Below, piece after piece: positions 28,841-44,059 of a stretch of 64,000 bases of DNA. This stretch comes from a virus. The stretch is from the IMG/VR virus record IMGVR_UViG_3300049846_001717, positions 1 to 64,000 of that record, one strand, 5' to 3'. The first letter of the stretch is position 1; each line of letters starts with the position of its first letter. Made by a program: the position numbers and the translations under genes. Below the pieces are notes generated by a model, which saw only the letters and a list, made by a program, of their open reading frames with translations, searched no databases and was not told where the DNA came from.

Positions 28841-29061
28841 TACCACTCCTCGTATGAGGTAACATCCAATGTTTCATTGGTTAATGCATCATGAATTTTA
28901 ACAATGGTTCCCAAGCCAGTAGGCGTAAAACTATAAGTAAATCTACCACCAGCGGCACCGGTGCGGCGCGATATCTTCTTTTCTTTAATTATCGTATCCA
29001 AAAATTCTACCCACTTTTCAATTTTTGGAGCGGCATCAAGTGGTATATTAAATAGAGTCAT
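28840..29061 (-). CDS. hypothetical protein
   Basis: GGRFTYSFTPTGLG..LDVTSYEEW. Confidence 0.6.
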   Translation of the reverse strand: MTLFNIPLDAAPKIEKWVEFLDTIIKEKKISRRTGAAGGRFTYSFTPTGLGTIVKIHDALTNETLDVTSYEEW

Positions 29062-29417
29062 TTCACAAGTGATAGATGTTTAAGTGCTTTTGCCTCTTCT
29101 CGGGTCAATGGACCGATACCAAGTGCAGTCATAATAGGGTTGCCATCAAAGTGAGGAGGCATAACATGGCCAGAATCAATGATGAGACTGTGTGGCCACC
29201 CATTGGCCTTCGCCAGTTTGACCAAGGCACGTATATCGGTGACAGAGCCTTCTAGAGTGACCTTCGTACCCAATCCACCCTTCTGATAGAGCCTGGCACG
29301 CCTGGGATTGAGTTGAACACACTCCAAATACGAATTAAGGAAAGCGTGACCCGCTTGAGCGGCCAGCTTTCCTGTCGGCATGTGTAAATCTTTACGAACT
29401 ATGGCATAGAGCTTCAT
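29058..29417 (-). CDS. peptidyl-tRNA hydrolase, Pth2 family
   Basis: VRKDLHM..GKLAAQAGHA, KVTL, IIDSG, TALGIGP. Confidence 0.88.
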   Translation of the reverse strand: MKLYAIVRKDLHMPTGKLAAQAGHAFLNSYLECVQLNPRRARLYQKGGLGTKVTLEGSVTDIRALVKLAKANGWPHSLIIDSGHVMPPHFDGNPIMTALGIGPLTREEAKALKHLSLVK

Positions 29418-29530: not shown

Positions 29531-29602
29531 AGCTCGTGGCGAGGCTTGAACTCGCTTCTTTCGTTTTAGAGACGAAGGCACCGGCCGATATACCACACGA
29601 GC
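29531..29602 (-). tRNA. amber suppressor tRNA (CTA)
   Basis: Full cloverleaf, TTCGT-CTCTAAA-ACGAA, U73. Confidence 0.85.
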
Positions 29603-29691: not shown

Positions 29692-29771
29692 GATCGAGAG
29701 TTCACGAAATTTAACGTTCTTGGTACTCACAACTTTCTTTACGAACGTATAATCTGTGCACAGATTATAAG

Positions 29772-29858
29772 AGGATCGGACAGGATTCGAACCTGTGATT
29801 AAGTCTTTCGACTATATGGTTTTGCAGACCATTGCGTTGGCCACTTCGCTACCGATCC
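29772..29858 (-). tRNA. tRNA-Cys(GCA) with long variable arm
   Basis: U73; V arm AGTC-GAAA-GACT. Confidence 0.85.
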
Positions 29859-29863
29859 AAAAG

Positions 29864-29956
29864 AGCGATTTCCTGAGTCGAACAGGTCTTCGTACCTGGA
29901 GGGGTACGCGTGCTGATGGATCATCTTGCGACAACCCGCCGTTACACTAAAACCGC
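29864..29956 (-). tRNA. atypical tRNA-Gly-like (8-nt anticodon loop, hairpin in D loop)
   Basis: GCG/CGC acceptor, U73; loop CCCTCCAG. Confidence 0.6.
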
Positions 29957-29960: not shown

Positions 29961-30010
29961 TGGCGCAAAGGGTGGAATTGTACATCCACTACAGAATTGA
30001 ATCCCCTTGC
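29961..30010 (-). ncRNA. tRNA minihelix-like RNA with encoded CCA
   Basis: GCAAGGG/CCTTTGC + GTGGA/TCCAC + G-CCA. Confidence 0.55.
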
Positions 30011-30017
30011 ATATTAC

Positions 30018-30069
30018 TGGCGGCAGGCGAAGGATCTACCCCTTCATACATAGTCAATGCTAGCCCGCC
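30018..30069 (-). ncRNA. tRNA minihelix-like RNA with encoded CCA
   Basis: GGCGGGC/GCCTGCC + GAAGG-7nt-CCTTC + G-CCA. Confidence 0.6.
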
Positions 30070-30096
30070 AAACTGATTTTCACGAGGTTGTTACAA

Positions 30097-30170
30097 TAGC
30101 GGAGGTTGGATTTGAACCAACGTCCTTCCGGTTATGAGCCGGACGCGCTGCCGGGCTGCGCCACTCCGCG
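30097..30170 (-). tRNA. initiator tRNA-fMet(CAT)
   Basis: C1:U72 mismatch, CGCGG 5' end. Confidence 0.88.
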
Positions 30171-30219
30171 TCAATGTTACTTTAACTGTCGAACTTTGAT
30201 CTCATACGTCCCTGTGGGG

Positions 30220-30555
30220 GTTGGATGCCAATAGCCAGGATTCTGTATAATGACAATCATTTGACTCAGTCCTCTTGCGAGGACCGCCCCACGTTTATAG
30301 TGAGGTGCTCTCAACCCGATACCTTTGGTCAGACGGACCCGTATCTGCTCGAGATTGCAGCGCCTATCCTGTCGCCCGTTTCATCCACCGCGTTATCGTG
30401 GCTCGTTTCTGTTGCCGTGACTCCATTTCGGAAAATACGAATTTCTCCATAAGATTCCTTATAGGGGAGCAGCTTCCACTCTAGGCTGTCTTGTGCTGTC
30501 CTGAACTTCCTCAACGTACAATCTAGTGTACGCCGCGATTGTCTAGGCATCCAAC
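30220..30555 (-). ncRNA. rnpB: RNase P RNA
   Basis: P1 GTTGGATGCC/GGCATCCAAC, P2 GACAATC/GATTGTC, CR-I GAGGAAGTTCAGGA pairs with CR-V ACAGAATCCTGGCT (P4), CAACAGAAA, TGAAAC. Confidence 0.88.
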
Positions 30556-30648
30556 TGTTTTACGATGTCCCGCAATTCCTTCCATTCGTCCTTCGTGAAT
30601 TCCGAACCATCCTTGTACATCGGACCGACAAACGTGTCACCCGAATGT

Positions 30649-30677
30649 AGTCTAACATGTTCGATGAACTTTGTCAA
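30649..30677 (-). promoter_or_regulatory. sigma70-type promoter upstream of RNase P RNA
   Basis: TTGACA-17-TAGACT. Confidence 0.65.
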
Positions 30678-30834
30678 GAGCGATTTGTAGTTCATTGTAA
30701 TCCTTACTTCTTGGGAACTTATACTGCATGGAGAGGTCAGGTGCTAGCCATGTCTGGCAGAAGGTGTCTTAGTAGTCTTGCAGGCATCCCTGTAGTGTCT
30801 ATAAGCATAATCTTCTTTTGCATACCTGACCAAG

Positions 30835-30907
30835 TCGGAAAGACAGGACTTGAACCTGCAACCCCCTGGTCCCAAACCAGGTGATCTGCCAATTGATCTA
30901 CTTTCCG
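30835..30907 (-). tRNA. tRNA-Pro(TGG)
   Basis: Cloverleaf. Confidence 0.92.
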
Positions 30908-30916
30908 AGTAGAGGG

Positions 30917-31791
30917 GAACGGGCTGAGAATACACCCGTTCTAGTCATCCTTTTGAACCATTATCCATCCCACATCCCTGTGAGACGTTCGATTCGTTTC
31001 CACGGTGACTCTCACCGTCGATGACCACAGCGACCTTTTTTAAAGTGTGGCGTTTCACTTGTCGTCTAGCACTTCTCGACACTTCTCCTACCGTCTGCCT
31101 TGCGAGCAGTACACAGTCGCTAAACCGTTACGTGCGGGTCTATATCGAAGACTCTCTGGCTTGGGGCCATCGAATCCGCCGTCTTCCTTGCGGGACGGCA
31201 TTACGCTGTTTATCATGCTTAGACCGAGGAAGTCTTTCCGTTTTTGGATTCGTATGATGGATTTGAACCACCATTAAATTGTTAATAGCAATGTGCCTTA
31301 CCGTTAGGCAAATACGACTTTGAACGAAGTGCTTCCTCAGTTGTTCCAATGACTTTTGATCATCAGAATGCAACACTCCGCGGCTACCGTTCCCCCTGAA
31401 CAGGGTACTACGTCATACGTCACGAACTCGGGCTGGCCTCTTAATAGCGGACAGCTCAGTTCATTAGTATTCCTGTGAAGCTCTTGGTTTCAAGGCCTCG
31501 AACCTCACAAGTATCTGTTACCTATCTGTTCTCGCGTGTGGGTTGAAATGGAGCCCGGCACCACCCGTCAGACTTCATGAACTTGCTTTCCTTCCCGAAG
31601 GAAGGGGCGTCAGCCCACGTTTTTCCCATTTCCACGCTTCGAACCTATCACCGAACCTTCGCCCGATGCTACTGGCTTCGAACCAGTAAAGGCCAGACTT
31701 GTTTGGATGAACCGTCTTGCGACGGCCCGGGTTACAAAGATAGCCCGGTTTATAGGCCTTACGACCTACTGTTCTTACGGAGTCCAAACAC
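30917..31791 (-). ncRNA. GOLLD-like large structured RNA (~875 nt)
   Basis: No credible ORF, many GNRA/UUCG hairpins, GTGTTGCATTC..TCAAAAG..GAACAAC, 3' hairpin GAACGGG-TGTATTCTCAG-CCCGTTC, embedded tRNA; family recalled from memory. Confidence 0.7.
31245..31318 (-). tRNA. degenerate tRNA-Asn(ATT) embedded in GOLLD-like RNA
   Basis: TCGTAT/ATACGA, D arm, ATTG-CTATTAA-CAAT, TTCAAAT loop, CCA. Confidence 0.6.
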
Positions 31792-31933
31792 CCCGTTGTT
31801 TCGATTATCAAACAACACTACAATATGGCGGTGTAAAATCAAACTCGATTGTTACAACCCAATCAAGAATTGCCCTGATCGTAAATCCCGTAGTTGCGTT
31901 AGAGTTTCACGACCCTATTGATTTCACACCATA

Positions 31934-32005
31934 TAGCTCTTACGGGTATCGATCCCGTTTTCACAGCTTGAAAGGCTGTTGTCCTAGCCAGTAGACGAAA
32001 GAGCC
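31934..32005 (-). tRNA. tRNA-Glu(TTC)
   Basis: Cloverleaf, T loop ATCGATA. Confidence 0.88.
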
Positions 32006-32023
32006 ATCGTTTCCTACTCATGT

Positions 32024-32052
32024 AACCTAATATATCGAACCCCATTTGGCAA
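32024..32052 (-). promoter_or_regulatory. sigma70-type promoter
   Basis: TTGCCA-17-TAGGTT. Confidence 0.55.
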
Positions 32053-32182
32053 GGGGTGAAACAACAGTAAGAAAACGGCACCGTTTATCTCGTGCGATAC
32101 GGCCTAGGCAATTCACACGCCGCAGAATCCTGACTGGACTTACCCGATCCGGTGCGTGCCGAATCGTTGTTGTTTCAAAAAC

Positions 32183-32289
32183 GAAACTATAGGCGGGATT
32201 CGAACCCAGCTCTCCGGCATTTGCGTGCCTACTCCACCGCGTGGGTGTCTCGGACTTCCGATGTGCTTCCAGTTACACTACTATGTTTC
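32183..32289 (-). ncRNA. tRNA-like RNA with expanded anticodon domain
   Basis: D arm GTGT-AACTGGAA-GCAC, T loop GGGTTCGAATCCC, ~50-nt multi-hairpin in place of anticodon arm. Confidence 0.55.
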
Positions 32290-32292
32290 AAG

Positions 32293-32365
32293 AGCGAATG
32301 AAGGGACTCGAACCCTCAACAACCACCTTGGCAAGGTGGTACTCTGCCAATTGAGTTACATTCGC
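32293..32365 (-). tRNA. tRNA-Gly(GCC)
   Basis: Cloverleaf. Confidence 0.92.
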
Positions 32366-32373
32366 AACTTCTG

Positions 32374-32661
32374 TTACTTCACTGCCAATACGTTGGATTC
32401 CGGCAATACGTAGAACTTCTCGCCGTTGTCTTCCACTTCGAACGCATTGAACTTCTGGAACCAGATCGTGTCACCGACCTTCAAATCCACGGGCGTTCGT
32501 TCGCCGGTTGACGACCACTTGCCTCTGCCCACAGCAACCACTTCGCCGGTGATGACTTGGCCCGTATTCGCCGACGTTTCGGGAATATACAAACCAGCAG
32601 CGGTAGTCTGTGATCCAGCGGTACGTACTCGTACCATCACATTATCGTTCAGAACTCGCAT
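32374..32661 (-). CDS. groS: co-chaperonin GroES
   Basis: LNDNVMV, TTAAGLYIPE, GEVVAVGRG, VKVGD-like LKVGD, ESNVLA. Confidence 0.9.
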   Translation of the reverse strand: MRVLNDNVMVRVRTAGSQTTAAGLYIPETSANTGQVITGEVVAVGRGKWSSTGERTPVDLKVGDTIWFQKFNAFEVEDNGEKFYVLPESNVLAVK

Positions 32662-32683
32662 GAAACCTCTTGGTTGTCGTACA

Positions 32684-32754
32684 TAGCCCCTGGGGGAATC
32701 GAACCCGCATTCGCTGATCCAAAGTCAGCTGTCCTACCATTGAACGAAGGGGCA
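32684..32754 (-). tRNA. tRNA-Gln(TTG)
   Basis: Cloverleaf. Confidence 0.88.
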
Positions 32755-32759
32755 ATAAT

Positions 32760-33017
32760 TCAAACTTTTCGCAACTTGAACATCGTATCGATGCCGTTGG
32801 CATCCGTACCGTGTCGTAAGAATACGATAGGTGTATCCACTCCGTCAAACTTGACACCAACCGCTTCGAACGATAACTGTGGTTGATCCGTGGCTTTGAT
32901 CACAAGACCGCGGGTTCCTGTGAGGAGGAACGTTGGTGCGGCCGATGCACCGTCCAGATGATAGACTGTATCTTCCGTTATTTCCACAACATCGTTTACT
33001 TGTAACTGTGTATTCAT
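32760..33017 (-). CDS. hypothetical protein
   Basis: ORF between tRNAs. Confidence 0.55.
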   Translation of the reverse strand: MNTQLQVNDVVEITEDTVYHLDGASAAPTFLLTGTRGLVIKATDQPQLSFEAVGVKFDGVDTPIVFLRHGTDANGIDTMFKLRKV

Positions 33018-33020
33018 AAG

Positions 33021-33093
33021 AGCAAGTAGCGGGATTCGAACCCGCGACGTCCTGCTTGGAAGGCAGGCATTCTAGCCACTGAATTATACTTGC
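33021..33093 (-). tRNA. tRNA-Gly(TCC)
   Basis: Cloverleaf. Confidence 0.92.
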
Positions 33094-33224
33094 ATTGACC
33101 CTATCTTGAATGCCGTTTTTTAGCGAGGACTTCCAAAACCTCGTACTATCTCTCGACTCAAATCATTAATAGGGTCAACCCGCATTAAATCTCAGAGGAT
33201 TTGGTAATGGGGCAAGTTATGATT

Positions 33225-33400
33225 CTATCGAGAATTTCGTGATTTAATATGTCTGGAGTAAGTTTCTGTTTGCGAATGGCAATTGGGACAGAGTAATCTT
33301 AGATTCGATGACAAATTATTCTTGTTATCGCCGTCGATGTGATCTAATTGAAGAACCAATCTCTTACCTCTAAAGATCGAACAGTGACTAACAATTCGAA
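33225..33400 (-). pseudogene. truncated HNH endonuclease
   Basis: LQLDHIDGDNKNNLSSNLRLLCPNCHSQT, no credible N-terminus; 5' boundary approximate. Confidence 0.65.
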
Positions 33401-33427
33401 ACGGAGCAATATCAATCCTATCGGAAG

Positions 33428-33502
33428 TGGTCAGGGTGGGATTCGAACCCACGGGATGCCGCGGTGTAGGCGCGGTGCACTAGGCCTCTATGCGACCCGA
33501 CC
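33428..33502 (-). tRNA. tRNA-Val(TAC)
   Basis: Cloverleaf. Confidence 0.85.
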
Positions 33503-33648
33503 ATTATGTTGTGTGGACTGCTGTAGACTGTAGTAAGGAAGCTCTACGTCGCCGTGAACTCATTAAGTGGCTACAGATTTGGAATTCATTGAAGTTGTCT
33601 TTTGACGGGTGGATTACCCACTTCGTTAAATTCCTACCACACAACAAG

Positions 33649-33732
33649 TACCGGAGAAGGGAGTCGAACCCTTAGAGCCGAAGCCCACTCGATCTTAAGC
33701 CGAGCGTGTACTGCCAATCCCACCACACCGGT
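33649..33732 (-). tRNA. tRNA-Leu(TAA)
   Basis: Cloverleaf, long V arm. Confidence 0.88.
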
Positions 33733-33739
33733 ATATCAG

Positions 33740-33813
33740 TGCCGGCCACGAGACTCGAACTCGTAAGATCCTGTTTTTGAGACAGGAATGTCTGCCAATT
33801 GCATCAGACCGGC
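33740..33813 (-). tRNA. tRNA-Leu(CAA), short V arm
   Basis: Cloverleaf. Confidence 0.85.
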
Positions 33814-33896
33814 ATATTGAATCTAGAGCTTCCCGCCCGAATACCAGGGACACGGTTATCTCAGCGTAGAGTGGCCACTCTCGCTTTTCGACTCAG

Positions 33897-33978
33897 TGCT
33901 CCAGAAGGGACTCGAACCCTTAAGCCGTTGGGGCAGAAGTTTTTGAGACTTCCGTGTATACCATTCCACCACCGGAGC
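33897..33978 (-). tRNA. tRNA-Leu(CAA)
   Basis: Cloverleaf, long V arm. Confidence 0.9.
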
Positions 33979-34040
33979 ATTGTGTAATCGTTGATCACGG
34001 AGCATTACGACTCCGGCCTTTCGGCTATGGTCCAACAAAA

Positions 34041-34148
34041 TACCGGTGGATGGATTTGAACCATCACTTATCGAAAGGTAATGAGCCTCTCAGTTGACAT
34101 GTTCACCAGCTGTGTGAACACCGCTTCTTCCAATTGAGCGACACCGGC
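34041..34148 (-). tRNA. tRNA-Met(CAT)-like with ~30-nt hairpin between D and anticodon arms
   Basis: GCCGGTG/CACCGGT, TGTTCAC/GTGAACA insert, AGAGG-CTCATTA-CCTTT. Confidence 0.6.
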
Positions 34149-34303
34149 ATTTCTATTTCTTCTTTGCGACGTACTTGTGATTTGGATGAAACCACGTGCA
34201 GGCACACGGTTTACCAATCGTGCTATGACACTGACCTTCACTTAAGTGGTGATATTTGGCCGTATGACCACAATCACACTTCACGTTCTTTGGAATCGTC
34301 ATA

Positions 34304-34386
34304 TGCGGATGAAGGGAGTCGAACCCTTAACCTATTCAGTACTAGATCCTAAGTCTAGCGCGTACTGCCAATCCCGCCACACCCGC
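34304..34386 (-). tRNA. tRNA-Leu(TAG)
   Basis: Cloverleaf. Confidence 0.9.
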
Positions 34387-34601
34387 GTATCGTACGTTTT
34401 TGGTAGAACGTACAAACTATCCGAGAGATGCCCCTCCGGCCAATCCATTTTGACGGAATGGATAAACCGTGTTGTTTCCCCGCTACCAAATGATGGTCCT
34501 GTCTATCGGATGCCTTGTCAGTGCGCCGTCATTACGGCGTGCGTCAGAATCGATGAACGTTTCCTAGGACATTCATAAACCCCTCGGCCCTTACTCCTAT
34601 A

Positions 34602-34630
34602 AGTATACTACATCACCGCGTTTTTGGCAA
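34602..34630 (-). promoter_or_regulatory. sigma70-type promoter
   Basis: TTGCCA-17-TATACT. Confidence 0.6.
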
Positions 34631-35990
34631 GCCCCGGTCGATTTTTCAGTTTATTCCGAAATCGAAATATTGGAGTTTGCTGTTCCACCGGGGTCGGTTC
34701 AACCGTGGTCGGTGGGGTTGCCACGAACTCGACGGGTTGAAGGGCTTCCGTTACCGTATCTCGCATCATTATGAACAGTTCACCCTGTGCGGCCGCCATG
34801 CTGATCTCTCGTTCCTTGTACTTCTGGCTGAACCGTTCTGCGCCGTCGGTATCACCAGGAAAGAACTTCAAATAGAGCTTGACGAGTTGTTGCCGTGATG
34901 CGTTGTCCACCAGAATCCGTCGGTCAATGCGACCAGGTCGAATCAACGCCGGATCCAAATGTTCGATATGGTTGGTGGTCATGATGATGATACGGGGCGA
35001 ATCGGACACCATAACACCATCGATGGAATTCAAGACTTCACTGAACGAGGCCGTGCGCTTCTTTGGCGCGTCCTCTTTCTTATCACCAGAAGAGGGTTCG
35101 GGCTCTTCGTTCATCAAAATCGTTGACGACCGCGAACTCATACCCAACAACGTGGCGTCTACATCTTCAATCAAGAGGATGCTATTACCCGGCAAACTAC
35201 TCAACGACACATCCATTTTCATCATCTGTTCCGACGTATATCGGCAGATGGTCATATTGAGTTCAGATGCCAACGTTCGAACCAACGTGGTTTTACCGTT
35301 GCCCGGCGGGCCATATAGGATGTAGCCGCGGCGAAATGGCACACCCAATCCCAAATACCAATCTTTCTTTGCAAGAAACTGACGAATGTCTGTGGCCAAC
35401 ATGTCGATGGTATTGTTGTCATCGATGACCGTTTCCTTGCTTCGTTTTGCGGTATACCCGACGACCACCCATCCGTTTTGTGACGTCCATTGCATGACCG
35501 GAACCGTGTCCGTTCGCAACGATGCATTGTATGCATCCGTCATGTGTTTGAGAAACGATTCCACAATCTTTCGACTGTTGCGACCCGTTCGGGCCAGATG
35601 GATCTTTCGAACTTCCATTGTCGATTCTTTATTGGCTTTTTCCGAGGAGAACGACACGAAGATTCGTTTTCCTTCATGAAGAATCTTGAACGAACCGGTT
35701 TTTGGACGAAGACGGGGCGTATAGACGTAGGTACCGTTTTTCTGTCGTGTGTAATCCCATGTGGTGTTCATCACGTTGATCCGTCGATCCGTGTGATGAT
35801 TATCGAAATACCAATTGACGACTACGCTGACTTCCAGTTCGGTCGAAAATCGAAAGTACGAGAATGCTCTAGACCAATATTTGCTAAACGTCGATTTTGC
35901 CAGTGTAACGGCCGTACCCATCAATCCAAGAACAAAGCCACCTTGGAACAGTGGATTCTGCGTCAATCCTTCAAATAACGGTAACGTCAT
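34608..35990 (-). CDS. BCS1-like membrane AAA+ ATPase
   Basis: N-terminal TM, GVPFRRGYILYGPPGNGKT, IEDVD, TTNH..LDPALIRPGRID. Confidence 0.88.
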   Translation of the reverse strand: MTLPLFEGLTQNPLFQGGFVLGLMGTAVTLAKSTFSKYWSRAFSYFRFSTELEVSVVVNWYFDNHHTDRRINVMNTTWDYTRQKNGTYVYTPRLRPKTGSFKILHEGKRIFVSFSSEKANKESTMEVRKIHLARTGRNSRKIVESFLKHMTDAYNASLRTDTVPVMQWTSQNGWVVVGYTAKRSKETVIDDNNTIDMLATDIRQFLAKKDWYLGLGVPFRRGYILYGPPGNGKTTLVRTLASELNMTICRYTSEQMMKMDVSLSSLPGNSILLIEDVDATLLGMSSRSSTILMNEEPEPSSGDKKEDAPKKRTASFSEVLNSIDGVMVSDSPRIIIMTTNHIEHLDPALIRPGRIDRRILVDNASRQQLVKLYLKFFPGDTDGAERFSQKYKEREISMAAAQGELFIMMRDTVTEALQPVEFVATPPTTVEPTPVEQQTPIFRFRNKLKNRPGLAKNAVM

Positions 35991-36154
35991 TGGTCCGTGT
36001 GTGTAGGGTTTTCAAATTCAGGAGCACCAAGCTCTGCCGCGAATTCCGGATCCACCGCGGCTAATTGTCGATGGGCCGACACTTGTAGGAATATTGACTC
36101 TCGTTCTTTTTCAGTCATATCGTCTACATCGATATATTTGATCATATCGAACAT
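35987..36154 (-). CDS. hypothetical protein
   Basis: Overlapping small ORF. Confidence 0.45.
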   Translation of the reverse strand: MFDMIKYIDVDDMTEKERESIFLQVSAHRQLAAVDPEFAAELGAPEFENPTHTDQ

Positions 36155-36300
36155 TAGTAACAGCCACCACACCAACTTTGATGATAACTATGACGGTCTT
36201 CCCATTCAACCGGCCGTGGTGCCGGACGTCGTTCTCGGTATTCTGCAACCCGTCCACACCCGGGACATTCGTATACCGTGATGAAGTACCAGCATTTCAC
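36154..36300 (-). CDS. small Zn-finger-like protein
   Basis: CPGCG...CGGC. Confidence 0.5.
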   Translation of the reverse strand: MKCWYFITVYECPGCGRVAEYRERRPAPRPVEWEDRHSYHQSWCGGCY

Positions 36301-36452
36301 GGCTTTTGATGTTTGTTTTTGGGTCGATGATGACAGCTTGAACACTTTTCCCCCGGCCGTACTTTGGCCATATCACATGAACACCACTGACTTCGAGCAC
36401 CTTTCGGGGTGGTTTTCTTCACCCGATTTTCTTTTTTGAGCGGATATTTCAT
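36297..36452 (-). CDS. small Cys-rich protein (51 aa)
   Basis: Hand translation MKYPLKKENRVKK...WCSCD...KCSSC. Confidence 0.45.
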   Translation of the reverse strand: MKYPLKKENRVKKTTPKGARSQWCSCDMAKVRPGEKCSSCHHRPKNKHQKP

Positions 36453-36453
36453 A

Positions 36454-36527
36454 CGCCCCCGGCAGGATTCGAACCTGCACTAATGGAGATTAGAAGTCTC
36501 CCTGACTGTCCTGTTGCCGACGGGGGC
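36454..36527 (-). tRNA. tRNA-Arg(TCT)
   Basis: Cloverleaf. Confidence 0.85.
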
Positions 36528-37200
36528 TTATTGTAATAGTTCGAGTTGACCTCGGAGTACGTCTTTCAACCGGACTTTCTTATCCGATCGATGATCGGTG
36601 ACGATACCGTCCTGTTCCCGATACGTTCGAATCTTATCGCCTCGCATTCCCGAACCTACAAGCTGTTTGCGGTCACCATCGGCTTGCCGTTTCGATTGTT
36701 CGGCCATATACGTGGCTACTCGATGTTCCAACAGTTCACGAGCAGTACGACGATTCTGATGTTGACTCTTCTCTGCGGCTTTCGCTTCGATCTTTGTTGG
36801 TTCGTGCCGCATGATGACACATGATTCAGTCTTGTTACGATGTTGACCGCCGGGGCCGGAATCCTTAGTGGTAAACGTCGTAATGTCTGATTCCTTCAAT
36901 CGCCATGACGCAGGTTCTTTGATCTCAAAGACGGCTACGGTGACGGTTGATGTGTGAACCCGACCACGACGTTCGGTGGGCGGAATACGTTGCCATCGAT
37001 GACCACCTGATTCATTCATCAATAATCGGAGCTTTGAATCGGTGCCTTCGATGATCAGGTCAAAGACTACCTCGGTTCTCCGAAATCACGGACGCGCCGA
37101 GACGAGAGGCAAACGACAGATAGATGTTGGCTTGGTTGGACACGAGCAGTTTTGCATCAGTGCCACCTTCACCAGGTCGGATTTCTACGAGGTATTTCAT
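36528..37200 (-). CDS. minimal class-1 peptide release factor (PxT, GGQ), expressed by +1 frameshift at CTT-TGA-C (~223 aa)
   Basis: Frame 0 MKYLVEIRPGEGGTDAKL...GSL*; +1 frame DLIIEG..ESGGHRWQRIPPTERRGRVHTS..GPGGQHRNKTES. Confidence 0.88.
37059..37073 (-). promoter_or_regulatory. RF2-type programmed +1 frameshift site
   Basis: GAGGT-AGT-CTT-TGA-C (internal SD, 3-nt spacer, shifty stop). Confidence 0.85.
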
Positions 37201-37222
37201 CGAAATTCTCATTAAAGGAAAG

Positions 37223-37299
37223 TGCTCCTAGTGGGACTCGAACCCACACTTGACGGCTTCTCGAACCGTTGACTCTGCCTGAGATTGGTCTACAGGAGC
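37223..37299 (-). tRNA. tRNA-Leu(GAG), short V arm
   Basis: Cloverleaf. Confidence 0.82.
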
Positions 37300-37343
37300 A
37301 TTAATGTCGGTTTTGAGAGAACCGACAAACTCGTATGACTCGC

Positions 37344-37613
37344 TTAGGCGATCGTCCATTCGGAAATGGAGCGGCCCTTTGCAGCGGGACGGCTCGAGTA
37401 CGTATACCCGACCTGTTCGAAGCCATTGCTGAATGCAGCATTGATGAAGCTCAAACGAGTACGGACCTTCATTTCATCGATGCCGTTCTTGCCGAGGTAG
37501 TTGTGCGCGTCATCGGCCGTTACAACGCCCGACGAACGACGATTTGCGAGGCTACGTAGATAGCCACGGAGGCCCGATACCATCTTTTCACGCTTCTGAT
37601 TTGACATAGACAT
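37344..37613 (-). CDS. hypothetical protein
   Basis: AAGGAG SD, promoter upstream. Confidence 0.65.
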   Translation of the reverse strand: MSMSNQKREKMVSGLRGYLRSLANRRSSGVVTADDAHNYLGKNGIDEMKVRTRLSFINAAFSNGFEQVGYTYSSRPAAKGRSISEWTIA

Positions 37614-37662
37614 TAGTGTCTCCTTGATTACAATGTGAAGGTGATTCTCCACATCATACCGA

Positions 37663-37691
37663 AAGATAGTTCACATGTCGTCTTCTGTCAA
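37663..37691 (-). promoter_or_regulatory. sigma70-type promoter
   Basis: TTGACA-17-TATCTT. Confidence 0.6.
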
Positions 37692-37720
37692 GTCGTTGAT
37701 ATTACCTAGATTGTAGACAA

Positions 37721-37794
37721 TGCACTCGGTGGGACTCGAACCCACAAGATTTCGCTTCTGAGACGAAAATGTCTGCCAATTGCATCACGAGTGC
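37721..37794 (-). tRNA. tRNA-Leu(CAG), short V arm
   Basis: Cloverleaf. Confidence 0.85.
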
Positions 37795-37797
37795 GTA

Positions 37798-37871
37798 TAG
37801 CGCTTATGGGAATCGAACCCATCATCAACTGATTGAAAGTCAGTGGTCCAGAACCGATAGACGGAAGCGCC
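37798..37871 (-). tRNA. tRNA-Glu(TTC)
   Basis: Cloverleaf. Confidence 0.87.
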
Positions 37872-37942
37872 GTGCAGGGTTGTTGTTCGCTAGTCATCGG
37901 CCGATGGCATCGCTCCCGCCAGTAACTCCCCAAACTGGCTCA

Positions 37943-38014
37943 TAGCTCTAACGGGAATCGAACCCGTCTTTGCGCCTTGAGAGGGCGCCGTCCTCGCCGA
38001 TAGACGATAGAGCC
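37943..38014 (-). tRNA. tRNA-Glu(CTC)
   Basis: Cloverleaf. Confidence 0.9.
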
Positions 38015-38030
38015 ATACATTAATACATAG

Positions 38031-38105
38031 TCGAAGTGGCGAGATTTGAACTCGCATGATGTCCTGTATCCGAAACAGGCGACTTGCCAATTAGTCCACA
38101 CTTCG
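38031..38105 (-). tRNA. tRNA-Pro(CGG)
   Basis: Cloverleaf. Confidence 0.87.
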
Positions 38106-38401
38106 ATTTGGTGTAATAAACCATCCGGCGGCGAATTCTGCCCCACAACCACCGACGCTAGACCGAGAGGAGTTGCCATGCCGTAGGTAAAGAATCTCGG
38201 ATCTCCCACGAGTTTAGCTGAGCACCCGGCATTGGGAGTGGACTAAGTTGCCCGTATCGAAGGCGAGAAACTGGATTCGACCGACACGACCTCGGTATAC
38301 AGTGACTAACGCGTGCTAAACTCGTATCCATTGCATGTTTCTGCGGTCTTCATATCTACTACACCAATTACTTGGAAACTTCAAACGTTATTCCAAATAA
38401 G

Positions 38402-38476
38402 TCGGAGTGGTGAGAATCGAACTCACTCGAATACCCTGATTCCAAGTCAGGGAGGCTCCCGGCGCCTTTCACTCCG
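38402..38476 (-). tRNA. tRNA-Pro(TGG)
   Basis: Cloverleaf. Confidence 0.82.
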
Positions 38477-38553
38477 ATACTACTCTAGATAGATCTTCAC
38501 TACTTCTCCGATATTCCGCCTCGGGCAATGTCGCCTCGGTACCGTGCGTTCCG

Positions 38554-39240
38554 CTATGCCGCATCCTCGTGAAGATCAAAATCGGACTCCAACATCGCTG
38601 CGCCGTACTTATTCTGCATTTTCGGATTTCGGGAGTTGTCCTTGTTGTGCTGACTCCATCCCATCGACTTGCTGACCTTCCCGTACAGACCACCCTTGAA
38701 AATCTTGTTGTGCAACTCCTGGTGCCGGCTATCGTAGGTCGTGTCCGGAATCCAATGATGGGTGATGATGTTCGGCGTGATCGCCAACACGAACCAATAG
38801 TCATGTTTGACGAAGTAGCCTTTCTTGTCGATCTTTTTCTTGTACGGAAATCCGACGTAGTCGGACCACTCACGATATTGAAAATACGACTTCAACTTCT
38901 CGCTCAGCGATTCGTATTTCTCGACTGTGATCCATCCCAACTTCTGGTTCCGAGGTTCCAACTGGCCGGTACGCCAGTTCATCCACAGAAAATCCTCACG
39001 ACGCGAGAACTGATCGCTGTTGACCAAATCCAACGCCTGCCGAATGTCTCGAGCATCCGTGCGATTGCGGATGTCTTCCCGCAACACGAATCGCCGTGTC
39101 CATCCGTTCTGATAATGCTCCACCGGTTCCCAGTGTCCTGCGCTTTCGTCACGCGCCCATCGGTTTCGGCGCGTCTTTTCGTACTCCGCCCACAACTTCC
39201 GCAACTTCTTTTCTTCTTCGTCCTTATGTGTACGTTTCAT
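38554..39240 (-). CDS. hypothetical protein
   Basis: GAGG SD before MKRTHK. Confidence 0.7.
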   Translation of the reverse strand: MKRTHKDEEEKKLRKLWAEYEKTRRNRWARDESAGHWEPVEHYQNGWTRRFVLREDIRNRTDARDIRQALDLVNSDQFSRREDFLWMNWRTGQLEPRNQKLGWITVEKYESLSEKLKSYFQYREWSDYVGFPYKKKIDKKGYFVKHDYWFVLAITPNIITHHWIPDTTYDSRHQELHNKIFKGGLYGKVSKSMGWSQHNKDNSRNPKMQNKYGAAMLESDFDLHEDAA

Positions 39241-39258
39241 AGAACCTCGTAAAGAAAG

Positions 39259-39332
39259 TGCCAACTCTCGGAATCGAACCGAGCCATGCGGCTCTTCAGA
39301 CCGCCGTTCCGCACCACGTAAACTTAGTTGGC
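39259..39332 (-). tRNA. tRNA-Phe(GAA)
   Basis: Cloverleaf. Confidence 0.82.
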
Positions 39333-39548
39333 TTGGAGCGGGACCGGCTTTTCATTCCGTCAAGGGCTCCCGCTGGACCTGTATATGTGAATGATGGGCG
39401 GTCTTTTGACGGGCCGTTCACAAGAGGCGCCCTGAATCTCGTTACTGAGCCGATTTCACCCATCAAAATGGTGTTCGTATGGTAGTCGGGACCACGCATA
39501 GTGGGCATCGGTCATCCTCCCACAGCTAATCACTACCATACGAACAAG

Positions 39549-39625
39549 TCCGCCCAGTAGGAGTTGAACCTACGTGCAACCAACTAGCCTTTCTACCGTG
39601 TATCAGACGGAGGGCATATGGGCGG
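39549..39625 (-). tRNA. non-canonical tRNA-Ile(GAT), no 5' D arm
   Basis: CCGCCCA/TGGGCGG, CCGT-CTGATAC-ACGG, GTAGG-TTCAACT-CCTAC, A73. Confidence 0.72.
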
Positions 39626-39653
39626 TTATCTGAGTTACATGCGGATATACTTC

Positions 39654-39682
39654 AATCTACTACGATCCATCTTGTGTGGCAA
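39654..39682 (-). promoter_or_regulatory. sigma70-type promoter
   Basis: TTGCCA-17-TAGATT. Confidence 0.55.
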
Positions 39683-39754
39683 GCTCCCACCCGGTTCTGA
39701 CCCGGGCTCTCTGCTTTACCAAAGCAGAATGTCAACCACGATCACTATAGGAGC
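39682..39754 (-). tRNA. tRNA-Thr(GGT)
   Basis: Cloverleaf, atypical T loop. Confidence 0.8.
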
Positions 39755-39773
39755 GTTCGTGAAACCATTGTAA

Positions 39774-39845
39774 AGCTCCATATGGGAGTTGAACCCATTT
39801 ATCCCGCTTACGAGGCGGGTACATCACCCTTTATGCTTATGGAGC
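39774..39845 (-). tRNA. tRNA-Thr(CGT)
   Basis: Cloverleaf. Confidence 0.87.
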
Positions 39846-39915
39846 ATGTGGCTGTGAGATTTTGCACGTTCCCACATTTACTCTCCTCGACTGCTTCTTC
39901 GGAGTACCATCGAAC

Positions 39916-40056
39916 CGCGGGCGTGTTCTGCCATTGAACTATATGTGTACGAGAAGCTGGGCACGGACTGGCACTAAGTATTCCATATTATTCCACACCG
40001 CGTGGCACCGTCTTCAAACTACTCATACGAGGAATTGAACCTCGATCTCACCCTCA
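39916..40056 (-). ncRNA. circularly permuted tRNA-like RNA (T arm before D arm)
   Basis: GGGTG-AGAT-CGAGGTTCAATTCCTCG-TATGAGT...ACACATA-TA-GTTCAATGGCAGAAC-A-CGCCC. Confidence 0.65.
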
Positions 40057-40129
40057 CGCTAACGGTCAGATTCGAACTGACGGCATCCTCATTACAAGTG
40101 AGGTGCATTGGCCTCTATGCTACGTTAGC
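40057..40129 (-). tRNA. tRNA-Thr(TGT)
   Basis: Cloverleaf. Confidence 0.9.
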
Positions 40130-40132
40130 AAG

Positions 40133-40208
40133 TCGGCCCGACTGGAGTTGAACCAGTGTGCACCGTCTAACCTTTCAACCGCTTATCAGGCGGAGGGTAT
40201 ACGGGCCG
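40133..40208 (-). tRNA. non-canonical tRNA-Ile(GAT), no 5' D arm
   Basis: CGGCCCG/CGGGCCG, CCGC-CTGATAA-GCGG, ACTGG-TTCAACT-CCAGT, A73. Confidence 0.72.
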
Positions 40209-40355
40209 GTAGCCGCCTTTTACTGTGGGCCTTCCCACACCGGCTCATGGCCGGAGGTACTCTACGGTTGCCTAATTGGTTGAATGTGGCCAGGTCACTG
40301 ATACGTAGGCACAGCCCTTTCGGGCATCAATACGCACTTCCTCACTGCACATTCA

Positions 40356-40429
40356 TGGACACCACGGGAATCGAACCCGTCACATCGTCATTGCGAATGA
40401 CAATCGCCACCCTTGGTACATTGGCGCCC
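40356..40429 (-). tRNA. tRNA-Ala(CGC)
   Basis: G3:U70. Confidence 0.82.
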
Positions 40430-40499
40430 GAGCCCGCAACCGGCGATGTCCCGGCGAGTTGACCTCCCTTCAACTCTTTCATGCGGCGGATTATTTCAA

Positions 40500-40621
40500 C
40501 GGCGATGGCAGGATTCAAACCTGCATTCGTGTAACTCAAAGCGCTTTGAGAAAGACCATACGGCCACCATGCATAGCAACCGAACGTTCGAACCACGTCT
40601 TATCAGTTAGATGACACCGCC
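40500..40621 (-). ncRNA. tRNA-like RNA with expanded anticodon domain
   Basis: GGCGGTG/CATCGCC, D arm, GCAGG-TTTGAAT-CCTGC, ~65-nt insert. Confidence 0.55.
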
Positions 40622-40624
40622 AAA

Positions 40625-40695
40625 TGGACCGAGTGGGAATCGAACCCACGAGTGCGCCATGCCATGGCGCCAGTTTCCCGTTAGCTTACCGGCCC
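40625..40695 (-). tRNA. tRNA-Ala(GGC)
   Basis: G3:U70. Confidence 0.87.
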
Positions 40696-40715
40696 GAACA
40701 ATGCTTCTAATTTCA

Positions 40716-40786
40716 TGGACCCGGGGAGAATCGAACTCCCATTATCTCGGTGCAAGCGAGATGTCCTCCCATTAAACGACGGGCCC
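40716..40786 (-). tRNA. tRNA-Ala(TGC)
   Basis: G3:U70. Confidence 0.88.
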
Positions 40787-40893
40787 AAATATCTAAACAA
40801 ACTGGACTGCCTTGTGGAACACCAGTCCGCCCTCCATGTTATTTTTCTCGACTTTCATCGGCCACCTATTGATGGGGCAATCCATTTAGACAA

Positions 40894-40968
40894 CGCACCG
40901 TAGAGGAATCGAACCTCTCTATCACTGTTTAACAGACAGTCGTAATCTACCAGACATACCAACGGTGC
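40894..40968 (-). tRNA. tRNA-Asn(GTT)
   Basis: Cloverleaf. Confidence 0.8.
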
Positions 40969-40995
40969 ATAATTCATTACATTTTCTACGGTTAA

Positions 40996-41076
40996 ATCAC
41001 CGGGTGGGAATTGAACCCACGTAGGCTTGCGCCACTGATTAACAGTCAGTTGCCTGAACCATTAGGCTACCGGTGA
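40996..41076 (-). tRNA. tRNA-Asn(GTT) with long variable arm
   Basis: V arm GGC-GCAA-GCC. Confidence 0.85.
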
Positions 41077-41165
41077 GTAACTACCTCTTGACCCCATTAA
41101 ACGATTCGGTTCTAAACCGAGGGAACTCTTGCGAGAAGAAGTACAGATCGTGTGTCGTGTGTAAA

Positions 41166-41375
41166 TGGTGGACCCTGGGATTTCTCAATCCCACAAGTAA
41201 CGTAACCTCGGGACACGACTCCCATTACGGTGCTTGACATGAAACATTCTTGGAGCCCTTAATTCATGTGTCGTGCGACAGTGGAGGCCCGTGTTCAACC
41301 TACTTCAAGGCACGACCCTTGATACAGTGATTGACTCGGTCTTGTAAAATCTTCTTAGGACTCTACACACAGGCC
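41166..41375 (-). ncRNA. unknown ~210-nt RNA with tRNA-like 3' end
   Basis: Ends GGGAT-TGAGAA-ATCCC-AGGGTCC-ACCA. Confidence 0.4.
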
Positions 41376-41378
41376 ATA

Positions 41379-41451
41379 TAACCGCACTCGGATTCGAACC
41401 GAGATTCAGAGGGTCAAAGCCTCTTGTCCTAAACCGTTGGACGATGCGGCA
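41379..41451 (-). tRNA. tRNA-Gln(TTG)
   Basis: Cloverleaf. Confidence 0.87.
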
Positions 41452-41452
41452 G

Positions 41453-41525
41453 TTGCTCTTCTAGGGATCGAACCTAGAGTTTCCTGGGTCAGAGCCAGGC
41501 GTGTTGCCAGTTACACTAAAGAGCA
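41453..41525 (-). tRNA. tRNA-Gln(CTG)
   Basis: Cloverleaf. Confidence 0.9.
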
Positions 41526-41848
41526 AAATGTTCTTTTCTATGACAGTTGGAACATAGTACAATACATTTTTCAACTTCTTGTAAAATTCTTGTCTTACCC
41601 CACGATCCCGCAGAAACCATTGATCCGATGTTACCGTGTTTAATGTTTGGATCTGTATGATGAAAATCTAGACATGCCGGATGTGATTCGGGGCATCGTT
41701 CACATTTCAATGTAGACTTGAATTGTTTCCACCATTCTTGCATTTCCTTACGACGGGTCTGTTTTCTTTGCAAGTACGAATCTTTATTGTTCAGATAATG
41801 TTGTTTGTTATACTGATCTTTCTGTTTTTTGGACCACTTATTTGACAT
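41516..41848 (-). CDS. HNH endonuclease-like protein
   Basis: CERC..CLDFHH..KCIVLCSNCHR; stop lies inside tRNA-Gln. Confidence 0.8.
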   Translation of the reverse strand: MSNKWSKKQKDQYNKQHYLNNKDSYLQRKQTRRKEMQEWWKQFKSTLKCERCPESHPACLDFHHTDPNIKHGNIGSMVSAGSWGKTRILQEVEKCIVLCSNCHRKEHFAL

Positions 41849-41915
41849 AATACTCTCCAATTTTGAGAGGTTGTTATGTATAAGTAGTCTGACCCAAACA
41901 GTTTCAGTCAGATAA

Positions 41916-42101
41916 TTACAACTCACTACATGGGATACAGAATGGTGCTGCGACCTGACGTTTCTTTTCTTCATCGAATCCAACGTCAATGAATTCGATT
42001 TTGTCTTCCGGGATGAAATCCGAACAGTTGACGCAAATCCACGAAATCTGTGATTTACCGTTTTCGATGACCTGCTTCACATTGCGTTTACGAACCAACA
42101 T
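41916..42101 (-). CDS. small Zn-finger-like protein
   Basis: CVNC...CIPC. Confidence 0.55.
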   Translation of the reverse strand: MLVRKRNVKQVIENGKSQISWICVNCSDFIPEDKIEFIDVGFDEEKKRQVAAPFCIPCSEL

Positions 42102-42125
42102 ACGACCTTTCTACGTTAAAGTTGA

Positions 42126-42201
42126 TACCAGTGATGGGTGCCGACCCCATTTCAATTCCGCTTATGAGGCGGACGCCGATGCCGACCGGCTTCCCACTGG
42201 C
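42126..42201 (-). tRNA. tRNA-Met(CAT), atypical T loop
   Basis: TCCGC-CTCATAA-GCGGA. Confidence 0.75.
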
Positions 42202-42238
42202 GTAATGCTATTCCACCCAGGGTATTGCAGAGTAACAG

Positions 42239-42318
42239 TGGTGTGGGAGGGATTCGAACCCACAGGCCGAAGCGCCGGTTTTACAGACCGGTGTTAATTC
42301 CAACATAACTTCCACACC
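42239..42318 (-). tRNA. tRNA-Tyr(GTA)
   Basis: Cloverleaf, V arm. Confidence 0.87.
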
Positions 42319-42519
42319 ATAGATATGTGAGTGCAGTCTCGTTCACCAGTTCCCTGCACTTTCGTTTCACACGTTACGTCACTACAAAGAGTGATGGATT
42401 TTGTTTTCTCACGTTCTCAGAGGAGTATCAGTCCTCTGAGTGCTAAGACATATGACACAACCTACTCTCTAGAATTCCTTTGTGCCACTTCCGGTTCCAT
42501 CAACCGGTCGTCTTGTGTG

Positions 42520-42747
42520 TTGAATTACGTGGTGATGATCCCTCGTTACGAATCGCACGTAACATTGCAATTTAGATGAGTCGCCACCGTCAATCAACTA
42601 GTATGTACGCTGAAAGTGGCCAGCATTTATTTGGTCTGCACATTTAAGACTCTCGCCCAAACTACTTCCCGGCCTTTGCCGCCTTACGGGTATCTCCGGT
42701 TTTCGCCTCATCACCTAGTCATTGCCCAGGTATACTACGTAATTCAA
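42520..42747 (-). ncRNA. unknown structured RNA (~228 nt)
   Basis: Closing helix TTGAATTACGT/ACGTAATTCAA, inner GGTGATGA/TCATCACC. Confidence 0.5.
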
Positions 42748-42748
42748 G

Positions 42749-42821
42749 GGTGATATACCGGTATCGATCCGGTACTCGCGGAGTCACAGTCCACTGTGCA
42801 GGCCACTACACTAATATCACC
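42749..42821 (-). tRNA. tRNA-His(GTG)
   Basis: G-1:C73. Confidence 0.88.
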
Positions 42822-42932
42822 ATAGGTGCAACCCCTAGGCCATCAGTTATTCACCGGCTGGGATGACTCCGCGCAGTGCCGGTCCAGATGCTCTCGTTGT
42901 CAGGGTTGCTGGAGAGCCCACGCTATGCTACA

Positions 42933-43006
42933 TGCTTCGGCTGAGATTCGAACTCAGAAGACTTCCGATTAAGAGTCGGATGCTTTACCTGATAAGCTTA
43001 CGAAGC
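42933..43006 (-). tRNA. tRNA-Lys(CTT)
   Basis: Cloverleaf. Confidence 0.87.
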
Positions 43007-43045
43007 GTAGGAAGGTTGTTTACGGTCTAACCTACAAAGACCACA

Positions 43046-43119
43046 TGCCTCGGGTGGGACTCGAACCCACAACTTACCGCTTAAAAGGCGGCTACTCTGC
43101 GCTATTGAGTTACCAAGGC
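43046..43119 (-). tRNA. tRNA-Lys(TTT)
   Basis: Cloverleaf. Confidence 0.9.
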
Positions 43120-43123
43120 GTTA

Positions 43124-43195
43124 TGCTTCCGGCCGATCCTGACACGGCAACGTGCTGTTTAAAAGACAGCTGTGATTCCTTTTCACCACGGAAGC
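43124..43195 (-). tRNA. tRNA-Lys(TTT), atypical T loop
   Basis: GCTGT-CTTTTAA-ACAGC. Confidence 0.72.
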
Positions 43196-43401
43196 GCTGG
43201 TGCCTCAATGTCGCGGTCACGTTGAGGCGCCGTGAGTGTGCAATATTGCATTTCTGGGACCGCTCACACACGGTCGTGCAATACTGTCCGCTGCTTCTTC
43301 GATTAACCAGTTTTGATGCCCGAAATAAATCCGACGTTCGTTATAGGAACGTTCGGGAAGCAGACTATCGACCTGAACAGAAGTCGGCTCGTACTGCCTA
43401 A

Positions 43402-43473
43402 TGCCCACGGAAAGATTCGAACTTTCTCGGAGAGTTTCGTAGACTCTAATGCTATCCGTTACATCACGAGGGC
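43402..43473 (-). tRNA. tRNA-Arg(ACG)
   Basis: Cloverleaf. Confidence 0.88.
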
Positions 43474-43509
43474 GTTGACGGTGTTTAGTGTGGTTCGCCG
43501 TCACCACTC

Positions 43510-43538
43510 AATATACAACATCTGTCTTCAGTTGTCAA
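43510..43538 (-). promoter_or_regulatory. sigma70-type promoter inside tRNA array
   Basis: TTGACA-17-TATATT. Confidence 0.65.
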
Positions 43539-43555
43539 GTAGCAAACTTCAAAAG

Positions 43556-43641
43556 CGGAAACGATAGGAATTGAACCTACAAGTGCTTATTAGGCACCGA
43601 CTGTTTTCGAGACAGCTTATCGCACCAATGATCGCGTTTCC
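43556..43641 (-). tRNA. tRNA-Ser(CGA)
   Basis: Cloverleaf, long V arm. Confidence 0.87.
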
Positions 43642-43755
43642 AGATTGCAGCAACAAGCACCAACTTTGTATGCATCCGGTGTGCATACCCTTTAATTCGG
43701 CTCCCGTCAGGGGTTGGTTAAAGCTCGACGCCCTCCCCATTCTTGTTACTACAAA

Positions 43756-43842
43756 CGGAAAGTAAGGGATTCGAACCCTTTCCCCGAATTAACGGGGCTG
43801 GTTTAGCAAACCAGTGTAGCGCACCGACTCTACCGACTTTCC
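43756..43842 (-). tRNA. tRNA-Ser(GCT)
   Basis: Cloverleaf, long V arm. Confidence 0.9.
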
Positions 43843-43844
43843 TT

Positions 43845-43884
43845 CGCCCGAAGAGGGACTTTCACCCTCTCTTTCCGTTCGGGC
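43845..43884 (-). ncRNA. tRNA minihelix-like RNA
   Basis: GCCCGAA/TTCGGGC + GAGGG-TGAAAGT-CCCTC + G73. Confidence 0.45.
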
Positions 43885-43894: not shown

Positions 43895-44059
43895 TTACTT
43901 TGTAGCTACCCGTTCTGCGTGCTGACACGCTTTACGATATGCCTCTACGGCTCGTTTGATTCGTTTTACATCTTCCGGCTTTGCAAACTCGTCGATCATC
44001 GTATAGATTTTCTTACGCGCCACAACTGCCTTATGTACTGCCTGCTCTCCGGCGGTCAT
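43895..44059 (-). CDS. hypothetical protein (54 aa)
   Basis: Hand translation MTAGEQAVHKAVVARKKIY...; GAGG SD. Confidence 0.55.
   Translation of the reverse strand: MTAGEQAVHKAVVARKKIYTMIDEFAKPEDVKRIKRAVEAYRKACQHAERVATK

Follow-up and report, generated by a model that had tools for sequence, protein, structure and literature searches.

We describe here a tandem pair of small genes, A and B, in the tRNA array of a phage represented by the single 98,055-bp IMG/VR record IMGVR_UViG_3300049846_001717. The first 64 kb of this record (positions 1 to 64,000), referred to as the window, were analysed. A and B are real small tRNA "top half" genes, which consist of an acceptor and a T-arm-like helix only and have a built-in CCA end. 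Their positions are as follows.

29961..30010, minus strand, the same strand as the tRNA genes: minihelix A, minimum free energy (MFE) -15.1, z -1.9
30018..30069, minus strand, the same strand as the tRNA genes: minihelix B, MFE -21.8, z -2.3

In A, a 7-bp acceptor helix with a single G.U pair at 5:68 is combined with an unpaired 14-nt linker and a second helix, a 5-bp stem with an 8-nt loop, which abuts the 3' acceptor strand to give 12 stacked bp in all. The 7-bp acceptor helix of B has its single G.U pair at 4:69, and its 17-nt linker includes a 4-bp mini-hairpin, with a U8-A9-like dinucleotide present. The second helix of B, which can be read as 6 bp with a 5-nt loop or as 5 bp with a 7-nt loop, also abuts the 3' acceptor strand (12–13 bp stacked). 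Together the stems of the two units hold 24–25 pairs without a mismatch; only three of these are not Watson-Crick pairs, and each of the three is a G.U when read on the transcribed strand. Both units terminate in G73 and an encoded CCA (GCCA), and each begins with G at +1 after a U at -1; T is the commonest -1 base among the tRNAs of the array as well (20/47). The minimum-energy folds of A and B are the structures described here, and they were kept when the entire 238-nt spacer was folded. The original prediction of tandem minihelices of about 50 nt with a GCCA tail was therefore correct for the helices and the tails, but the hairpin loops are not T-loops. A motif scan did not detect the canonical T-loop consensus (TTCRANY) in the 8-nt loop of A or in the loop of B, in either of its two readings.

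No Rfam match, including to the tRNA model RF00005, was obtained over 29961-30069 at E-values up to 10 and no tRNA was called there by ARAGORN, so that A and B are not canonical tRNAs. A relaxed ARAGORN run over the two units gave just a spurious composite call. The Rfam models for tmRNA and YrlA did not match A or B either. The tRNA-like domain of tmRNA and YrlA (PMC4201824) likewise mimic an acceptor and T-arm without an anticodon, and some of them are phage-encoded. However, a true T-loop and an analogue of the D-loop are retained in them, and in tmRNA also the G3:U70 pair recognised by AlaRS; such features are missing from A and B, whose G.U pairs lie at 5:68 and 4:69. A and B are not members of the canonical tRNAs, the tmRNA tRNA-like domains or YrlA.

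Several other identities were considered and rejected. Coding sequence was dismissed, as A and B are overlapped solely by a 22-codon open reading frame (ORF) starting with TTG, and no plausible ORF covers either unit. They are not intrinsic terminators, having no U-tract, and not an attP-like copy of the 3' end of a host tRNA, since both acceptor strands are present and there is no T-loop. Repeats like those of type III antitoxins were excluded by the dissimilarity of A and B.

Searches for units of this kind were performed with base-pair descriptor scans in Python, MAFFT having misaligned the two stems. With the strict plan of two helices followed by NCCA, A and B were the sole matches in the 98-kb genome. 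A relaxed scan gave five weak matches per strand, and A and B were the only clean ones. In dinucleotide shuffles the mean was 0.74 strict matches per genome, and a tandem pair, i.e., two matches within 150 nt, appeared in 0 of 300. What makes A and B significant is that they lie in tandem, on the strand of the tRNAs, with tRNA-like spacing and context, and not how many matches there were. Without the tail, the two-helix plan is common, with about 40 occurrences per strand across the same genome. The odds of two accidental CCAs, one in A and one in B, are about 1 in 4096, and no canonical tRNA here has one.

The genes of the window are almost entirely on the minus strand. That strand carries all of the approximately 50 tRNA genes, together with one tmRNA, one GOLLD RNA and one RNase P RNA. 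ARAGORN called 46 tRNA genes and the tmRNA between about 26 and 46 kb, and Rfam added four tRNAs to these as well as the GOLLD RNA at 30921-31383. An encoded CCA was found in 0 of the approximately 50 canonical tRNA genes called by either program, which bears out in full the earlier claim that the canonical tRNAs here lack it. The immediate neighbours of A and B are listed below.

30097..30170, minus strand: tRNA-Met, upstream neighbour of B, without an encoded CCA
29866..29956, minus strand: X, an aberrant tRNA-Gly(UCC)-derived gene, which begins 4 nt after the CCA of A
29771..29858, minus strand: tRNA-Cys, downstream neighbour of X, without an encoded CCA

The spacers from tRNA-Met to B, from B to A and from A to X are 27, 7 and 4 nt, respectively, and this packing is tRNA-like.

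The phage also encodes an RNase P RNA of its own, about 150 nt upstream of A and B.

30217..30554, minus strand: class A-like RNase P RNA, a full-length Rfam match at a relaxed threshold
30649..30677, minus strand: sigma-70-like promoter upstream of the RNase P RNA, a consensus match only

At 72.8 bits (E 2.5e-22 to about 1e-20), the RNase P RNA falls short of the Rfam gathering score, which is 100. Blocks resembling CR-I and CR-V are present in it, and its L15 keeps GGU at the aligned position. No terminator-like site was found on the minus strand between the promoter-like site and A and B, and therefore the RNase P RNA, A and B are probably on one transcript. Bacterial RNase P is known to recognise a 12-bp acceptor/T stack, U-1/G+1 with a preference for U-1, and the T-loop via the S-domain, while the 3' RCCA of the substrate forms Watson-Crick pairs with GGU in L15 of the RNase P RNA (PMC10731613). 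A and B have the stack length (12–13 bp), the RCCA and U-1/G+1 of a minimal RNase P substrate, but not the T-loop. The suggestion in the original prediction that these RNAs are RNase P processing signals thus gains support from the sequence, including the GGU kept in the phage RNase P RNA.

From these features we propose, with a confidence that falls only a little short of even, that RNase P releases A and B from the transcript and that their encoded RCCA pairs with the GGU of the phage RNase P RNA. In this model, A and B would be two lineage-specific small-RNA genes within a polycistronic tRNA transcript, co-transcribed with the RNase P RNA, tRNA-Met, X and tRNA-Cys, and RNase P would cleave each unit at U-1/G+1. 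The T-loop/S-domain contact used by canonical pre-tRNAs would not be available to A and B, whose hairpin loops are not T-loops. G73-CCA could provide an alternative contact by pairing with the L15 GGU, and A and B would then be competent before any CCA addition. Such a replacement of the missing T-loop contact by the encoded RCCA would explain why A and B have a CCA although no real tRNA here does. Cleavage at the 5' end of the next unit would leave trailers of 7 and 4 nt, which exonucleases could trim to the CCA. The CCA motif is generally held to block RNase Z. The end products would be stable minihelices of 50–52 nt with a ready-made tRNA 3' end.

In their form, A and B most closely resemble the synthetic minihelix and hairpin substrates of RNase P, which have a 12-bp coaxial acceptor and T stem, a 3' RCCA and U-1/G+1, and no D or anticodon arm. 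Synthetic minihelices have also been used with the CCA-adding enzyme and with some aminoacyl-tRNA synthetases. These constructs were made in the laboratory, have a true T-loop and lack a 5' linker, whereas A and B occur naturally as genes, with 14–17 nt of linker in the 5' strand and a loop that is not a T-loop. Expression and excision of A and B, if they take place, would make the two RNAs the natural equivalents of molecules that have served for some forty years as model substrates of RNase P, of the CCA-adding enzyme and of aminoacyl-tRNA synthetases. A and B lie beside a phage-encoded RNase P RNA. The proposal also yields a testable rule, namely that an encoded RCCA substitutes for a missing T-loop contact.

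Among natural RNAs, rnaC (species 1) and rnaD (species 2) of phage T4 (NC_000866) are non-decoding stable RNAs that are units of a tRNA cluster, as proposed here for A and B. T4 rnaD ends in an encoded CCA like A and B, and T4 rnaC has a canonical T arm (NC_000866). With 119–139 nt, both are more than twice as long as A and B, their folds are different, and no relation in sequence is expected. The purpose of stable, non-decoding RNAs in the tRNA clusters of phages is an old question, to which A and B would add. To our knowledge, no function has yet been assigned to rnaC or rnaD. The t-elements of plant mitochondria (PMC1920247) are anticodon-less tRNA-like cis-signals for RNase P and RNase Z. 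They flank organelle mRNAs and are not defined by an encoded CCA, whereas A and B lie between phage tRNA genes.

Several results weigh against the proposal that A and B are functional, RNase P-excised genes. Their strict count, two against 0.74 expected, is not significant alone, the parameters of the scan were chosen after the elements had been seen, and the folding z-scores of -1.9 and -2.3 are modest. A and B have no detectable similarity to each other, and neither is significantly similar to any member of a set of 102 tRNAs and tRNA-like sequences taken from this phage and from its sole syntenic relative, G001, a 105-kb IMG/VR contig found via its baseplate protein (66% identity); this mutual dissimilarity and the lack of homologues count on the same side. 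The order GOLLD, tRNA-Pro, RNase P(-like) RNA, tRNA-Met and tRNA-Cys is common to G001 and this phage, and yet the 89-nt Met-to-Cys spacer of G001 contains no homologue of A or B. It holds a different, poor tRNA-like gene ending in CCA. BLAST with the array spacers showed that other odd tRNA-like genes, X and the D-armless tRNAs near 40140, are kept in G001 at 75–92%; the adjacent arrangement of A and then X is not. Descriptor scans of about 0.9 Mb of related phage DNA, including the sequenced 96 kb of G001, the complete 335-kb genome G008, G010 and three metagenomic arrays, gave no analogue of A or B near tRNAs. Conservation of the helices, on which the original prediction had made its functional reading depend, is thus absent from G001 and the other loci, and that reading is weakened. 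Absence from the syntenic relative counts against an important conserved function of A and B.

Wider searches extended the relatives little. A search with PTH2 against 5.8 billion proteins gave a nearest homologue of only 61% identity, with others at 59% and 58%, and no close relative in the collections searched. Another search with PTH2 led only to phages at about 50% identity without synteny, and a search with the AAA ATPase gave no useful relative. When the region was compared with 50,697 phage records by megablast and blastn, only tRNA-Met matched. An exact pattern from part of B had no match in viral contigs, and a pattern across the B-to-A junction had 16 matches in prokaryote genomes, all random GC-rich sequence. 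A tRNA-Val pattern matched G001 alone in viral contigs and three unrelated arrays in metagenomes, and it had no match in prokaryote genomes. On the evidence of the window, A and B remain an orphan pair.

The lack of conservation would also be expected of evolutionary debris. A and B might be functionless remnants of tRNA-like genes that were once in the slot and lost their D and anticodon arms; the source may have been CCA-bearing odd tRNAs as in the relative, and tRNA-processing enzymes may still cut the remnants. The array is rich in duplicated, aberrant and rearranged tRNA genes, the same slot of G001 holds the poor CCA-ended gene mentioned above, and the tRNA-Cys and the X homologue of G001 encode CCA. 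In addition, the array of G001 is much more compact, so that the spacers of this phage look like added or decaying material. We nevertheless regard this explanation as unlikely, though it deserves serious weight, because no trace of similarity links A or B to the tRNAs and odd tRNAs of the two phages. The T-loop consensus, which is the most conserved part of the tRNAs here, is gone, yet the 24–25 pairs are intact apart from G.U and G73-CCA is kept in both units, which is unlike neutral decay. Fortuitous inverted repeats in the spacer with coincidental CCAs would likewise account for the modest z-scores and the missing conservation, and the tail-less architecture and the strict count agree with such an origin. 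Chance is improbable all the same, as two matches within 150 nt were never obtained from the shuffles, both units are located within a tRNA spacer and on the strand of the tRNAs, and both have G73, U-1, G+1 and 12–13 stacked pairs with G.U as the sole exceptions.

The role of the RNAs after release was also considered; they might mimic or compete with substrates of enzymes that act on tRNA 3' ends, or have no role. The computations spoke neither for nor against the suggestions in the original prediction of decoys for acceptor-end toxins or RelA and of amino-acid carriers. The genes listed below bear on the decoy role.

29058-29417: PTH2 peptidyl-tRNA hydrolase, in or around the array
26432-27124: HD_4 phosphohydrolase, in or around the array
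1767-3365: tRNA nucleotidyltransferase (CCA-adding enzyme), farther from the array

Genes for a metallophosphoesterase, an AAA ATPase and GroEL are also in or around the array. The released minihelices might be acceptor-end decoys, i.e., sponges or competitors for host enzymes that attack the 3' end of tRNAs, such as pyrophosphokinases of the toxSAS/CapRel type, nucleotidyltransferases of the MenT type and GNAT acetyltransferases, and might so spare the tRNAs. The location of the array among the CCA-adding enzyme, PTH2, the HD_4 phosphohydrolase, the metallophosphoesterase, the tmRNA and a release factor fits tRNA-end repair or counter-defence, and a mature CCA end would be presented without a CCA-adding step. 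This role is improbable, since two single-copy genes would have to out-compete the entire tRNA pool and A and B are not conserved in relatives with the same accessory genes. An extension of the same idea, that phages with large CCA-less arrays encode CCA-ended top halves, excised by the phage RNase P RNA, as sinks for defence enzymes in a module with PTH2, HD_4 and the CCA-adding enzyme, is speculative and has a similarly low probability in our view. Lower still do we place the idea that A and B are cleavage signals only, which would split the part with the RNase P RNA and tRNA-Met from X and leave the minihelices as by-products. At the ends of mRNAs, t-elements do guide cleavage by RNase P or RNase Z (PMC1920247), A lies only 4 nt from X, whose acceptor and 4-bp T-stem are weak, and a further interrupted hairpin, C, lies between a small ORF and tRNA-Ser. 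However, the flanking tRNAs already supply RNase P and RNase Z sites, tandem signals would be redundant, and G001 processes the same genes without A and B.

Preferring the proposal of RNase P-excised genes for A and B, we could not extend it to the other three members of the family originally predicted.

43845..43884, minus strand: C, an interrupted hairpin of 7 + 6 bp, all Watson-Crick, z -3.4, without CCA
43895-44059, minus strand: 54-codon ORF, rich in Lys, Arg and Glu, with GAGG upstream
39334..39374, minus strand: D, a weak hairpin followed by CCA, 1 nt before tRNA-Phe, z -0.8
43198..43228, minus strand: E, a plain 7-bp hairpin followed by ACCA, in mid-spacer, z -3.6

The supposed family of five is reduced to A and B, which are not homologous to each other and are not conserved in the nearest relative. 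C was said to have the same plan as A and B, and its helices of 7 and 6 bp agree with this, but it has no CCA. With the tail-less plan occurring about 40 times per strand, C is indistinguishable from chance and is not a demonstrable member. It lies 10 nt past the stop codon of the 54-codon ORF and 2 nt ahead of tRNA-Ser(gct), and the ORF, which had no PHROG match, sits in the 316-nt spacer from tRNA-Arg(tcg) to tRNA-Ser(gct). For D and E, described as hairpins ending in NCCA, a CCA does follow the hairpin, but both lack a second helix and occur at a chance-like rate. D is not distinguishable from chance, and a discriminator ahead of its CCA exists only when the stem is read as 6 bp; E folds stably but lacks a T-like arm. 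Stems of 7 bp with NCCA behind them occur 20–26 times per strand in the window, and 10 were observed in the array against 6.3 expected, which is near the chance rate, and D and E therefore carry no weight. For 8-bp stems in the array, CCA was the most enriched trinucleotide after the stem (6 against 2.6 expected), and this signal stems from A and from three previously unlisted elements, F, G and J. A general excess of hairpins followed by NCCA was not upheld, the 7-bp and 8-bp counts being merely suggestive.

39469..39545, minus strand: F, 77 nt, a perfect 14-bp closing stem and then ACCA, z -4.9, 0/200 shuffles
40277..40355, minus strand: G, 79 nt, an 8-bp closing stem and then ACCA, z -2.7
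41282..41375, minus strand: J, 94 nt, a three-way junction with a 9-bp closing stem and then UCCA, z -3.8, 0/200 shuffles

Each of these begins at or near the end of a tRNA or tRNA-like gene: F lies 3 nt after an aberrant tRNA, G directly after the 96-nt aberrant tRNA at 40356-40451, and J 3 nt after tRNA-Gln(ttg). None of the three had an Rfam match. BLAST of every array spacer found none of A, B, C, D, E, F, G and J conserved in G001. G008 (L062/L054) has two identical copies of a 12-bp hairpin with ACCA after it, at 322527-322561 on the plus strand and 165161-165195 on the minus strand, far from tRNA genes.

The neighbouring gene X has an 8-nt anticodon loop and, in this phage, a 23-nt hairpin inserted in the D region. 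The 8-nt loop is found in X of both phages, and the anticodon stem differs between them by compensatory changes. X has no CCA in this phage, and its G001 homologue (L036 13361-13434, minus strand) ends in an encoded one. A normal 71-nt homologue of X was found in an unrelated viral contig (L066 3525-3595, minus strand).

In the slot of the RNase P RNA, G001 has an RNase P-like RNA of about 200 nt (L036 11600-11800, minus strand), which matched the archaeal model at 46.8 bits. A sub-threshold YrlA match in G001 (L036 16067-16175, minus strand; 37 bits, E 8.5e-5) overlaps tRNA-Glu(ttc) and is upstream of tRNA-Glu(ctc). The release-factor gene within the array of this phage is a fragment (36528-37022, minus strand) with an RF-1 domain and just the end of PCRF. 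An amber-suppressor tRNA(CUA) at 29531-29602 (minus strand) adjoins PTH2, and suppressor tRNAs adjoin PTH2 in three of four distant relatives too (L001, L003, L004).

At the 3' flanks of at least 17 of 47 tRNAs in 29.5–45.7 kb (minus strand), the discriminator is followed by C and T, so that C74 is apparently encoded and the rest of the CCA is not; the tRNA trailers across this region mostly begin with T. These flanks may reflect the 3'-processing route of the host. Finally, ACCA was found inside the anticodon-like loop of the 96-nt gene at 40356-40451 (minus strand) and of the gene that fills the slot in G001 (L036 11362-11436, minus strand), and the corresponding loop of X holds TCCA or CCCA. 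These CCAs may be a coincidence or may belong to Trp-like or quadruplet anticodons.

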